A stretch of DNA of 18,226 bases from an uncultured bacterium (lineage in GTDB: Bacteria; CAIJMQ01), in assembly GCA_964573245.1 (NCBI GenBank), contig CAZNJA010000025.1, positions 1 to 18,226 on the forward strand, read 5' to 3'. The stretch's first letter is position 1, and each line of letters starts with the position of its first letter. The position numbers are program-made. Positions 3,001 through 6,000 of this stretch are shown here, in pieces.

Positions 3001-6000
3001 GTTGTTATTGCTATTATCGGGATTTTGGCTGCTATACTGATGCCTGCATTGCAAAGGGCAAGAGAGTCCGCAAGAAAAGCCGCTTGTGCTTCTAATCTTA
3101 AACAAATAGGTTTGGCAATAAATGTCTATTCACAAGATTGGAACGAAAACTTTCCCCAATCCCATGCAACAACTCCCAATACTGACAATGATTTTAGGTT
3201 ATTGATAAACAATGGGTTATATGCAGTCGCACCCGTTTTTTTCTGCCCAAGTGATAGAAACGGTTCCAAAAGTATGAAAGACAATACGTTCTTTTCATTA
3301 GAGGGATGGGCTAATTGTAGTCCTACCGATCCTTGTATTTCATACGCTTATGCTTTTGACCTTGACGCAATGGACTATTCTGATACAGCTATTGCGCTTG
3401 ACCAATATGGTAATTATGGTGCACAAACTTTCACTAACGAAAACAATAAAAACCATAAGAATCTTGGCATAAATGCACTCTATGTGGACTCACGTGTTGA
3501 ATGGATAACACTTGACCCTGCTTTCGTTGAGGTGGCAGATAAGATCCCGAATTGGAATAATAATCCGGGTGACCGAGGTTCTTTGTATAATCCACATTAA
3601 CCACATCGTGTTCATAACATGTTACGATGCTTAAAAATGAAAAGTGTAAAAATAGGGGAGGTGAAAAAATGAGAAAGCCGATGAGACATTTTTTAAAAGG
3701 ATTTACTCTTATAGAACTTCTAGTCGTTATAGCCATTATAGGGATATTGGCTGCTTTACTTATGCCTGCTTTAAATAGAGCAAGAGAATCTGCAAGACGC
3801 GCTACCTGTAAGTCAAATCTTGAACAGATAGGCAGAAGTATGTTTATGTATGCAGAGGACTGGAAAAACTTTTTCCCACGGTCACGAGATAATGCTTATA
3901 CTGTTAGAGATTATCAGTTATTTGTGAATCTAAGTGCGGGTAGATGGCATTGGGGTGGGACACAATTTGCTATGGTAGAGGCAAAATATGGAACCGGCGC
4001 AATGTTGTTTTGCCCAAGTGATAGAACCGCGCGAAAAGATGATAATAATGTACTTAATGGCAACGGACTAAGTTCTCCTTTAGGTTCAAGTCTTCCATAC
4101 ACCGCTACAAATAAACGCGAAGTTTCATATGCTTATGCTTATAACATGACACCGATGTACATATTCCCCAAAACAAATGGGGGCCTGGGTGCATTCGGCA
4201 CTAAGACTACTACACATCAACAAACAAATCCTGCCCTTCCTCTTTTTACAAATAACGATTTGAATGGAACTACGTCGGTTTTAGCAGTTGATATATCCGG
4301 GAATGTAAGCACCGCTGCAGCTACTCCCAGCCACTGGGAATGGAATCTAGACAATGCCACTTTAAAGAATCACGGAACCGCAGGAGTCAATATACTCAAA
4401 GCTGACGGTCATGTGATATGGTCCGATTTAACTTGGGGAGATGCTTGGGATTTTGTCCGCGATACAGAAAGTGCAGCAGTACAGATTCCCAATCACCTTA
4501 TTACCAATGATATATATCGTGGTTTTTTGGCAAACCCATAAATTAACAAGAATTCATGTCCCTCCTGTTTTTTAAACAGGAGGGATTTTTTATAAAAGCC
4601 TAATTTGATTTTGGTGGACAAGAACCTGTATAAATAAATTTTACTAAAAATCAAAATCTGTGTTATAATGGAAGCAGTGCGAAAGGTAACTTGAAAGAAT
4701 CAATTCTAACAAAAGGAGGTTAAGATGGCTGAAGCCAAAGTTTATTCTTTAAGGATAGGCAAGAAGGAAGAAAATGTTTTCAAGAGTAAAGGCGCGCGCG
4801 GAGCAGCTTTAAAAGCGGCTACACGTGGCTTGAAGGATAAAGACGGTCTTATAAAATTAAGAGAACATGGCAAGAAAAAAGACGGTCTTTATCGCGTCCA
4901 TGTTTTTAAAGGTTCTGTGCGGAAAGTTGCTAAACCCGCAAACGCTCCCGACTGGATGCCTGCTATGATTAACAAACCAAAAGTCAGCAAAGTGAGAGTA
5001 GAAAAATTAAAAGGAATATAAGATCTTTCTTAAATCTTCAATAAAAAAAGAGATGGTTTTGACAACTGTCTCTTTTTTTTTGCGATTTTTTTGTTAAATT
5101 GCAATGGTTTATAAAATGTAGTAATATTTCAACAATAAATACATAAAAAATAGCATGGCAATAAACAAATGTAAACATAGAAACAATTTGCTTATATGTA
5201 TTACTATTTTAGGAGGAAATTACGATGATAGGTAAACTTATTAGGCTTGAAAGAATTATGGACAGAAACTCTGGCAAAACCGTTATTTTACCTATGGACC
5301 ACGGTCTTACCATGGGTCCTATAGAAGGTCTTGTCAATATGAAAAAAATCATTGACGAAGCAGTAAAAGGCGGCGCTAATGCTGTTATTCTGCATAAAGG
5401 AATAGTCAGAGCCGGACATAGAAGTTCTGGACAGGACATAGGGCTTATTATCCATCTCACGGGAAGCACTTCTTTAAGCCCTTCGCCGAACGCCAAAGTT
5501 GATATATGCTCTGTCGAAGAAGCCATAAAACTGGGTGCAGACGCCGTCTCCGTTCATGTTAATTTGGGCGACCCTGCCGATGGCGCAATGCTTAGACATT
5601 TCGGAGAAGTATCGAGAAAGTGTCAGCAGTGGGGGATGCCTTTGCTTGCCATGATGTACACCCGCGGCGATAAAATAAAAAATCAATTCGACGTCCAATA
5701 TATAAAACACGCCGCAAGAGTAGGAGCGGAACTCGGTGCGGATATTGTGAAAGTAAATTACACAGGAAATCCTAAAACTTTTGAAGAAGTGGTAAAGGGT
5801 TGTCCTGTTCCCGTAGTTATTGCAGGCGGAGAAAAGTTGGAAACAGAGGCAGACTTATGGAAAATGATACAAGGAGCGCTTTCTGCCGGAGCCGCAGGCG
5901 TTTCAATAGGAAGAAATATTTTTCAGCATAAGAAACCGAGTCTACTCATAAAAACAATAGGTAAAATCGTGCATGAAAACCTTCCTATAAAAGAAGCGGT

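Follow-up and report, generated by a model that had tools for sequence, protein, structure and literature searches.

The window (the whole stretch of DNA that was analysed, 18,226 nucleotides) is an 18 kb bacterial contig with genes for SurA, ExbB/ExbD, two DUF1559 N-methyl pseudopilins, LpxB, PriA and an RHS protein. Among them, with bacterial genes on both sides, lies a small gene of the MC1 family. The SurA, ExbBD, LpxB and PriA genes on the same contig agree with an earlier first-pass annotation, which had described the neighbourhood as ordinarily bacterial. The features at the locus are the following.

4558..4586, plus strand: terminator-like hairpin with T-run (13-pair stem, 6 G-C pairs), 3' of the upstream pseudopilin gene
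4640..4669, plus strand: sigma-70-type promoter-like site (TTTACT, 18 nt, TATAAT; TG ahead of the -10 hexamer; 10/12 matches)
4713..4719, plus strand: Shine-Dalgarno sequence AAGGAGG, 5 nt 5' of the ATG, read directly from the sequence
4725..5021, plus strand: MC1-family gene, A-type paralogue (98-aa ORF, stop codon counted in)
5039..5082, plus strand: hairpin with A-run and U-run just 3' of the MC1 stop, likely an intrinsic terminator (-18.2 kcal/mol)

The MC1 reading frame starts with the ATG at 4725, and the hairpin at 4558..4586 stands between it and the pseudopilin gene. The promoter-like site is weak evidence, since it is a consensus match alone and the region holds five such sites against 3.1 +/- 1.9 in shuffled sequences. 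The downstream hairpin folds with a z-score of -4.64, and 0 of 200 shuffles folded equally well; a consensus terminator scan passed it over, its G-C pairs being too few. Judging from the predicted promoter-like site and the terminator hairpins, the window MC1 gene is probably its own transcription unit. No RNA run was found among the 12 listed runs that hold window positions 4300-5700, all of which are apparently DNA. Third-position GC content (GC3) of the gene is 0.343, neighbouring genes span 0.30-0.46, and the base composition of both the A-type gene and its B-type paralogue fits the host.

Membership in the MC1 family is clear. The Pfam model PF05854 matches the window protein with E 2e-19 and 70.1 bits (cut-off 23) over profile positions 13-95 of 96. 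It is the only Pfam family to match, and no NCBIfam model does. A phmmer search of the PDB returns 1t23, 2khl and 2nbj ('Chromosomal protein MC1') with E 1.2e-13, window residues 14-95 aligning to 14-92 of 1t23_A. In sequence databases, 41 of 52 homologues are at least 57% identical to the window protein, which together with the Pfam and PDB E-values excludes a chance match. The protein is small, strongly basic and single-domain (pI 10.5, calculated as 10.51; 27 Lys+Arg versus 9 Asp+Glu), in the MC1 size class of about 90-100 aa. The gene is thus a true member of the MC1 family in a bacterial chromosome. A profile scan of the whole genome found two loci above the cut-off, C25:4764-5009 in this window (69.1 bits) and C57:4627-4890 (77.9 bits). 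The window copy is the A-type paralogue and the C57 copy the B-type. The same genome has a single HU gene (PF00216), on the minus strand at C107:430-696 (93.2 bits). The first-pass annotation had proposed the MC1 gene at 4725, the second paralogue on C57, the retention of HU and a match to 1t23 with a conserved DNA-binding arm; the scores above bear out all four, and arm residues P75, W77 and M78 are kept.

An AF2 model of the window protein (mean pLDDT 89.1) has strands at 5-11 and 14-21, a helix at 24-34, and strands at 42-47, 56-69 and 81-95. This is the order b1-b2-a-b3-b4-b5 of the pseudo-barrel with b4-b5 arm published for MC1 (PMC3928310). Foldseek against BFVD retrieved giant-virus models annotated as 'Chromosomal protein MC1 domain-containing' (probability 1.00, TM 0.5-0.7). 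The solved structures 1t23, 2khl and 2nbj were listed neither by Foldseek against the PDB nor by a wide VIA-align search, so support for the fold comes from sequence, from the order of secondary-structure elements and from the predicted viral models.

A close characterized relative is MC1 of Methanosarcina thermophila CHTI55 (1T23, 2KHL, 2NBJ; PF05854), which resembles the window protein in family, size class and basic charge. Mutagenesis of MC1 has pointed to contacts at Arg25, at Pro72, Trp74 and Met75 of the arm, and at Lys86, Arg88 and Ile89 of beta5 (PMC3928310). The AF2 model of the window protein shares the secondary-structure order given there, and by the residue list in that source the window protein retains K22, R25, P72, W74, M75, K86 and R88, with I89 replaced by V; the contact residues R25, P75, W77, M78, K89, R91 and V92 are so numbered in the window protein. 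In an alignment of 80 sequences R25, P75 and W77 are each at least 90% conserved. The window protein differs from the M. thermophila protein in a 5-residue beta3-beta4 insert, in the length of the helix-to-beta3 loop and in substitutions at or beside the DNA contacts (Q23 to G, P24 to A, K85 to S). Its host also differs, being a bacterium that has HU. To judge from the aligned residues, both paralogues retain Arg25 and the Pro-x-Trp-Met arm needed in DNA bending.

Both paralogues are under purifying selection. In nine unsaturated pairs dN/dS was 0.04-0.16 (five more pairs were saturated), and of the 15 differences listed for a strain variant that occurs alongside, 14 are at third codon positions, counted from the ATG at 4725. 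Gene order is conserved as well. Prephenate dehydrogenase, pilin, pilin and MC1 follow one another across genera (L137, L135, L010), and the B-type gene stands between a 257-aa ORF, itself preceded by ABC/FtsX, and an epimerase in two genomes (G000 and G001).

MC1 genes occur in 7 of the 9 genomes of the window's class, which makes up the whole phylum in the genome set. This match count equals the earlier one, although its best match (G004:C2) is an apparent contaminant; the same genome also has a bacterial-type copy on C125. The description of MC1 as a trait of Ratteibacteria proved too narrow, because a second small bacterial phylum has the gene in 8 of 9 genomes (G081-G089), which brings the two phyla to 15/18. 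In the taxonomy used G081-G089 form a separate phylum, and two of them recur as G105 and G265, tagged 'same domain', in a wider sample of 401 genomes; there, the 390 bacterial genomes outside the two phyla gave no real MC1 match. An apparent third lineage (G379, 22.7 bits) was spurious, the match lying inside an FtsJ-like methyltransferase ORF. Nearly all genomes of both phyla have one to three MC1 copies. The two phyla may be sisters, a relationship that rests on one rare character: rpoB and rpoC form one open frame of ~2,600-2,690 aa in both, and a similar length was seen in 2 of 72 other bacteria (G052, G054). Identity of the RpoB domain was uninformative as a kinship test (56-58% between the two phyla versus 58% to the best unrelated bacterium).

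By its sequence features, the window protein is likely a monomeric DNA-bending nucleoid protein that works beside HU. By homology to M. thermophila MC1, one molecule would sit on the DNA's concave side, where P75, W77 and M78 of the arm and K89, R91 and V92 of beta5 would enter the minor groove. Arg25 would neutralise the phosphates crowded in the narrowed major groove, and a sharp bend would result. HU was present in 14 of the 18 genomes of the two MC1 phyla. In these fragmented MAGs there was one HU match in genomes with two or three MC1 copies, three in those with one, and two in G005, which has no MC1. A broader reading, which we put forward tentatively and would not yet bet on, is that two sister phyla pass on MC1 vertically as one of their major chromatin proteins, descended from a single Altiarchaeota-like capture, sharing the nucleoid with HU and perhaps partly replacing extra HU paralogues.

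Alternatively, the MC1 fold may have been kept and its general nucleoid role lost, so that at least one paralogue would be a conditionally expressed specific regulator, a protein protecting against stress or DNA damage, or a factor for recovery from stasis. The retention of HU is in keeping with such a specialisation, as are the changes near the DNA contacts of the A-type protein, which is altered at residues 23, 24 and 88; in the B-type, P24 and K88 are still in place. However, the main bending determinants of this small and basic protein are intact, a strong Shine-Dalgarno sequence precedes its gene, which forms a separate unit, and strongly constrained copies are found, one to three per genome, nearly throughout two phyla. 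We regard the specialised role as unlikely.

The archaeal relatives of the window protein point to the source of the gene. Marine Euryarchaeota at about 53% identity had been named as the nearest homologues outside the clade, which does not hold: Altiarchaeota-type proteins on archaeal contigs, here called group 3, reach 63-70% identity (65% for L044; others are the metagenomic proteins P0031-P0039). L044, from Ca. Altiarchaeales archaeon WOR_SM1_SCG, is the only group-3 protein in a named genome. On three group-3 contigs (L044, L115, L116) a HEAT protein and aIF2-beta precede MC1, and L115 has a tandem MC1 pair. On two others (L126, L127) the order is class I LysRS, MC1, NusA-KH, L30e and RpoA'', and for RpoA'' of L127 the nearest relatives come from Altiarchaeota/Altiarchaeales MAGs (58-68% identity). 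Group-3 proteins (L044, P0031-P0039, L115-L127) share with the window protein the beta3-beta4 insert, the 'REH' motif and, as in L115, the occurrence of more than one copy. They differ in their archaeal host and in lacking four residues that follow the helix in all bacterial copies.

An MC1 tree was built with IQ-TREE (119 rows, a short alignment of 95 columns); its root was not inferred, its backbone lacks resolution and the bootstrap was still unsettled (correlation 0.947). The 21 bacterial rows group together (95/96), within a larger clade of 27 rows (100/99) whose other six members are group-3 proteins. In the unconstrained tree group 3 is a grade below the bacterial clade (81/86, 89/84). 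An AU test did not reject group-3 monophyly (p 0.857), and the constrained tree had the higher likelihood, so the result goes no further than a bacterial clade that is either sister to Altiarchaeota or nested in them. The indels form a series from plain MC1, through a DPANN/Altiarchaeota type whose beta3-beta4 insert is 6-7 residues long, and group 3, to the bacterial clade with its four further residues. The family distribution and this indel polarity suggest transfer from archaea to bacteria. An archaeal origin of the bacterial MC1, which had been proposed before, is therefore likely, the 27-row clade, the indel series and the archaeal group-3 contigs all pointing to it.

Transfer may have gone the other way, with the 'REH...KDG' subtype arising in bacteria and then passing to Altiarchaeota as group 3. 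The tree root was not inferred and the AU test permits group 3 as a clade sister to the bacterial one; if it is one, either domain could have been home to the ancestor of the 27-row clade. We consider this improbable. Every other branch of the family that was found is archaeal or giant-viral, so a bacterial ancestor would need an archaeal source anyway. Group 3 is without the bacterial four-residue insert, and like other Altiarchaeota, Aenigmatarchaeota and Undinarchaeota copies it combines a short helix-to-beta3 loop with the beta3-beta4 insert. In the unconstrained tree, moreover, it branches as a grade below the bacterial clade.

Under archaeal origin, the MC1 gene would most likely have entered from Altiarchaeota-like archaea with the same insert-bearing subtype, probably before the two small bacterial phyla diverged. 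Vertical inheritance would have followed, with more than one duplication (A-type/B-type, and a separate one in the second phylum) and strong purifying selection. The account as a whole, in which a genuine MC1 gene forms its own transcription unit, came from an Altiarchaeota-like source, descended vertically and encodes a protein that bends DNA as its homologues do, seems to us reasonably probable. An 'archaeal island', in which MC1 would have arrived in the company of its archaeal-type shikimate neighbours (aldolase and DHQ synthase II, 5225-7023), was rejected, since relatives with the same upstream synteny are without shikimate genes downstream and group-3 contigs do not have them beside MC1.

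Contamination of metagenome assemblies with archaeal MC1 does occur in this data set. On G004:C2 a Methanosarcina-like MC1 (106.6 bits) adjoins an archaeal salactin gene, and the contig looks like a contaminant; Acidiferrobacter-, Salinimicrobium- and Verrucomicrobiales-labelled MAGs have MC1 copies more than 88% identical to those of marine group II, the Acidiferrobacter-labelled one next to an archaeal Hjc gene. That the window gene is likewise an assembly or binning artefact, an archaeal fragment in a bacterial MAG, is close to refuted: both flanks are bacterial, and Logan contigs from other runs bridge MC1 and both neighbours without differences (X1, 4490-5280; X2, 4346-4812 and 4827-5287), with the caveat that the best holder run may be the source sample. 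The same MC1 type also stands on bacterial contigs in 15 genomes, the window gene has GC3 like that of its neighbours, and the bacterial proteins form their own clade, with a four-residue insert absent from all aligned archaeal sequences. Recent acquisition via a phage, plasmid or other mobile element is scarcely credible: although a marine-group-II-like MC1 in a Verrucomicrobiales-labelled MAG (L113) adjoins a phage-type integrase and MC1 genes lie on Halococcus plasmids (the only plasmid matches), 50,697 phage records gave no match, no mobile-element genes flank MC1 in the window, gene order holds across genera, synonymous sites have reached saturation between families and base composition is host-like.

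Chromatin proteins are usually taken as markers of domains: HU stands for bacteria, and archaea are marked by histones, Alba and MC1. In some bacteria (e.g. Bdellovibrio) histones, counted as archaeal or eukaryotic chromatin proteins, are native constituents of the nucleoid; they differ from MC1 in fold and binding mode, and they are experimentally supported. Thermoplasma HTa, an HU homologue that passed from bacteria to archaea, became fixed in its clade and is reported to stand in place of histones (PMC7613761). Bacterial MC1 would resemble it as a nucleoid protein that passed into another domain and became established throughout a clade there, but the direction is opposite and HU is kept in most of the genomes. 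Giant-virus proteins such as Mimivirus gp275, reported to bind and compact DNA (bioRxiv 10.1101/2024.02.22.580433), also carry the MC1 domain outside archaea, with matching predicted folds. According to that source they share ~30% identity with archaeal MC1, commonly form part of larger proteins, are oligomeric and have Lys or another residue at the position of Arg25; bacterial copies are single-domain and keep Arg25.

The first-pass annotation had stated that NCBI already names such proteins 'chromosomal protein MC1' in Calescamantes- and Omnitrophica-labelled MAGs, and this name was indeed seen (P0011, P0023). Its further claim that no paper exists stands in part. A single line in a 2017 paper names 'MC1 or histones' as possible companions of bacterial HU, and that passage gives no lineage or data (PMC5499826). 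The literature searched held nothing joining MC1 with Ratteibacteria, or MC1 with nucleoid-associated proteins and Omnitrophota. For PF05854 it held only one work (preprint and journal version), on archaeal genomes only, and a chromatin survey covers archaea only, by its text (PMC7613761). Already known, then, are the MC1 family, the NCBI pipeline name and a passing mention of bacterial MC1 in print.

In the two phyla, bacteria that have HU have retained and duplicated an archaeal DNA-bending protein and held it under constraint over phylum-scale time. If the broader reading given above is right, bacterial chromatin would here, at the level of a phylum, have taken in an archaeal non-histone chromatin protein whose donor can be traced. 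The finding also suggests that genes have passed between Altiarchaeota and little-known bacteria with small genomes. Retention of MC1 alongside HU amounts to a natural experiment on whether nucleoid proteins of different domains are interchangeable or additive, an idea that is directly testable because MC1 proteins are small and easily made. As to habitat, the 12 listed runs with near-identical window DNA comprise 11 salt-marsh metagenomes and 1 sediment metagenome.

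MC1, an archaeal DNA-bending chromatin protein family (PF05854), is represented in this bacterium by a real, intact and constrained gene; the family is known, and the host is unexpected. The protein matches the Pfam MC1 profile over positions 13-95 of 96 (E 2e-19, 70.1 bits; the curated cut-off is 23 bits) and the Methanosarcina thermophila MC1 structures 1t23, 2khl, and 2nbj at E 1.2e-13; no NCBIfam model matched it. A whole-genome scan (1.46 Mb, 110 contigs) found two loci above the MC1 cut-off, this gene and C57:4627-4890 on a second contig, recovering both paralogues reported in the first-pass annotation. 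HU, described there as kept, is present at C107:430-696 (- strand), and every figure of that annotation that could be repeated was reproduced. The 18-kb contig has the following features, in gene order:

First in gene order: SurA and ExbB/ExbD (from the contig annotation)
1929-2825: prephenate dehydrogenase, upstream of MC1
2944-4541: tandem pair of DUF1559 pseudopilin genes bearing N-terminal methylation motifs, between prephenate dehydrogenase and MC1
4558-4586, + strand: terminator-like hairpin closing the upstream gene
4640-4669, + strand: promoter-like site with an extended -10, matching the consensus at 10 of 12 positions
5 nt upstream of the MC1 ATG, + strand: Shine-Dalgarno sequence AAGGAGG, read from the sequence
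4725-5021, + strand: MC1 ORF of 98 aa, read from the sequence
5225-7023: DeoC-type aldolase and 3-dehydroquinate synthase II (PF01959), directly downstream of MC1
Thereafter: LpxB, then a DUF374 acyltransferase
Thereafter: QueH, then an aminotransferase
Thereafter: PriA, before the last ORF
13858-18225: very long ORF with TPR repeats, C39 peptidase, DUF6531, RHS repeats and a laminin-G-like domain, running past the contig end

Judged from the predicted hairpins and the promoter-like site, MC1 looks like a transcription unit of its own; a stable hairpin (-18.2 kcal/mol, z -4.6) lies 3' of its stop codon. An assembly artefact was rejected as the source of the gene, given the bacterial 18-kb contig, a GC3 of 0.343 within the range of the neighbours (0.30-0.46), and Logan contigs from other runs. 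These matched with zero differences, one set (X1) spanning 4490-5280 and another (X2) 4346-4812 and 4827-5287, so that both MC1 junctions are bridged; one of the bridging runs may be the source sample of the window itself. Short contigs of four runs match only the conserved 5' ends of the pseudopilin genes (bins 2900-3040 and 3605-3745) at high summed depth, which marks the DUF1559 pseudopilins as a multi-copy family in the community. The DeoC-family aldolase and 3-dehydroquinate synthase II represent an archaeal-type entry into the shikimate pathway, and their adjacency to MC1 is absent in relatives. The architecture of the last ORF is typical of polymorphic-toxin proteins.

MC1 had been described as a trait of Ratteibacteria, but its distribution is wider. 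The class of this bacterium is the whole phylum in the taxonomy used, and seven of its nine genomes carry MC1 (the two without are 90% and 64% complete). A scan of named genomes uncovered further bacterial MAGs with two copies each (G081-G085), outside these nine; they belong to a second phylum, in which 8 of the 9 genomes (G081-G089) have two to three matches. The second-phylum MC1 contigs are bacterial, encoding lipid A acyltransferase, AccA, YkuD transpeptidase, ParA/ParB, EPSP synthase, TrpE, methionine aminopeptidase, and LeuA. Outside the two phyla, genuine MC1 was found in none of 390 other genomes in a wide sample of 401, where two second-phylum genomes (95% and 91% complete) recur as 'same domain', and in none of the 72 other bacteria in a smaller sample of 81. 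The only match outside the two phyla in the wide sample, a borderline 22.7 bits on Pfam MC1 (G379:C19; L222:2832-3449), is spurious: it falls in an ORF for an FtsJ/RlmE-like methyltransferase, in an unrelated bacterium, and is a false positive to keep in mind when bacterial MC1 genes are counted.

Several other copies in nominally bacterial MAGs are probably archaeal. Those in MAGs labelled Acidiferrobacter, Salinimicrobium, and Verrucomicrobiales (L079, L105, and L113) share >88% identity with archaeal copies from marine group II and probably represent mis-binned contigs; the first adjoins an archaeal Hjc gene and the last a phage-type integrase. The top score within the phylum of the window (106.6 bits, G004:C2:52197-55463, L003) belongs to a Methanosarcina-like MC1 that adjoins a salactin-family gene in a stretch of 41% GC; this contig is probably archaeal and a contaminant of the bacterial MAG. 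A different irregularity affects the MC1 of G006:C159 (L008; same sequence as L043:2995-3306), which stops at a TGA after 86 residues; the similarity beyond it looks like a frameshift, due either to misassembly or to disruption of the gene itself.

A search of 5.8 billion clustered proteins returned 52 homologues at E <= 1e-5. With at least 57% identity, 41 of these comprise the bacterial clade, a set of Altiarchaeota-type proteins (group 3), and P0040 and P0041, which are a little more divergent; marine Euryarchaeota follow at 52-55%. A set of 1.84 billion 50%-identity representatives gave only 79 matches, and a single representative (P0037, 67%) covers both the bacterial clade and group 3. 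Marine Euryarchaeota at ∼53% had been proposed as the nearest homologues outside the clade; the closest archaeal copy in named genomes is instead that of 'Candidatus Altiarchaeales archaeon WOR_SM1_SCG' (L044, 65%), and Altiarchaeota-type proteins reach 63-70% identity. The contig context of group 3 is archaeal. A HEAT-repeat protein and aIF2-beta are encoded immediately 5' of MC1 in L044, L115, and L116, and on L115, an Altiarchaeota-type metagenome contig, two MC1 genes stand in tandem downstream of aIF2-beta (2261-2881); paralogues are thus maintained in the likely donor group as well. In L126 and L127, MC1 follows class I LysRS, with NusA-KH, L30e, and RpoA'' close by; the nearest relatives of this RpoA'' are Altiarchaeota/Altiarchaeales MAGs (58-68% identity).

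The alignment with archaeal copies reveals a stepwise series of indels. Plain MC1 occurs in Methanosarcina, Methanothrix, and marine group II; copies from Altiarchaeota, Aenigmatarchaeota, Undinarchaeota, and unnamed archaea have 6-7 additional residues in the beta3-beta4 loop; group 3 (L044, P0031-P0039) has 94-95 aa and an 'REH' motif; and the bacterial clade adds to the group-3 form four residues between the helix and beta3. For phylogenetic analysis, three fragments (L034, L035, L036) and a duplicate of the window protein (L002) were removed, clustering at 88% identity reduced 229 sequences to 130, and seven fragments <86 aa and four rows with garbled N-termini were dropped. In the maximum-likelihood tree (IQ-TREE, LG+C20+F+G4, 119 rows, 95 columns), whose backbone is unresolved and whose bootstrap had not settled, the 21 bacterial rows form a single clade (95/96) within a 27-row clade (100/99) that includes six group-3 rows. 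A separate group-3 clade was not rejected by the AU test (p 0.857), and the bacterial clade is thus either sister to the Altiarchaeota group or nested in it. The tree is unrooted; transfer from archaea to bacteria is nevertheless strongly indicated, because all other branches of the family found belong to archaea or giant viruses, the insert of the bacterial proteins is a derived state, and the beta3-beta4 insert is common to group 3 and to other Altiarchaeota and DPANN copies.

The two paralogues are ∼70% identical. The A-type (window copy) is the sole type found in family f3, and its clade (100/95) includes both second-phylum paralogues, which are sisters (100/94). The B-type (C57 copy) occurs in the genus of the window and its sister genus, and its rows lie at the base of the bacterial clade with unresolved branching order. 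In a mutagenesis study of M. thermophila MC1, replacing Arg25 lowers affinity >100-fold, and Lys22 and Gln23 (within or close to the opening turn of the helix), Pro72, Trp74, and Met75 of the arm, and Lys85, Lys86, Arg88, and Ile89 of beta5 matter (PMC3928310). Aligned to 1t23, Arg25, Pro72, Trp74, and Met75 correspond to R25, P75, W77, and M78 of the window protein, the beta5 residues to S88, K89, R91, and V92, and Lys22 and Gln23 to K22 and G23, so the main DNA-contact determinants are kept. Gln23, Pro24, and Lys85 are lost in the A-type; the B-type keeps Pro24 and Lys88. The contact residues that are kept point to a putative DNA-bending role in the nucleoid. An AlphaFold2 model from an 80-sequence alignment (mean pLDDT 89.1) has the secondary-structure order published for MC1. 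Foldseek against predicted viral structures returned giant-virus MC1-domain proteins at probability 1.0; solved MC1 entries were absent from the results of Foldseek against PDB and of a wide VIA-align search.

Nei-Gojobori dN/dS was 0.04-0.16 in nine pairs with unsaturated synonymous sites; five wider pairs, including A-type versus B-type and window versus L044, were saturated. Of 15 differences listed within MC1 for a co-occurring strain variant, 14 are at third codon positions. Three contigs of relatives (L137, L135, L010) preserve the upstream order prephenate dehydrogenase, pilin, pilin, MC1, and the B-type neighbourhood is common to two genera. Phage records yielded no MC1 match, and plasmid matches came from Halococcus only. 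In both phyla the RpoB domain lies within a single open frame of ∼2,600-2,690 aa spanning rpoB and rpoC, a length sufficient for a fused rpoB-rpoC. The frame was found in seven genomes of the window's phylum (G000:C8:29817-31382, L196; also G002, G003, G004, G006-G008) and four of the second (G084, G086, G088, G089); comparable frames turned up in only 2 of the 72 other bacteria sampled (G052, 2,534 aa; G054, 2,906 aa). This rare character, common to both phyla, suggests kinship between them, with MC1 acquired ahead of their divergence. RpoB-domain identity by itself gave no sign of kinship.

Pipeline names for such bacterial proteins already exist in databases, and one sentence of PMC5499826, citing general reviews, names 'Fis, ..., H-NS, MC1 or histones' as possible companions of bacterial HU. 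A survey covering the nucleoid proteins of 1,419 archaeal genomes inferred an origin by transfer for the MC1 of marine group II (PMC7613761), and a study whose screen was restricted to archaeal genomes showed that the M. acetivorans MC1 paralogues are individually dispensable (PMC13729102). MC1 in giant viruses has also been described (PMC5671483; bioRxiv 10.1101/2024.02.22.580433). Our literature search found no paper naming an MC1-bearing bacterial lineage, describing bacterial paralogues or tracing their source. New here are the second MC1-bearing phylum, a probable Altiarchaeota-type source (63-70% identity), indels diagnostic of bacterial MC1, and the evidence for its old, vertical inheritance.

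HU was found in seven of the nine genomes in either phylum, including all five high-quality genomes of the window's phylum. MC1 and HU counts appear inverse, a suggestive pattern from few, related, fragmented MAGs, with matches counted and not gene copies: two to three MC1 matches go with one HU match for the most part in family f1 and the second phylum, family f3 (G006, G007) has one and three, and G005 has none and two.
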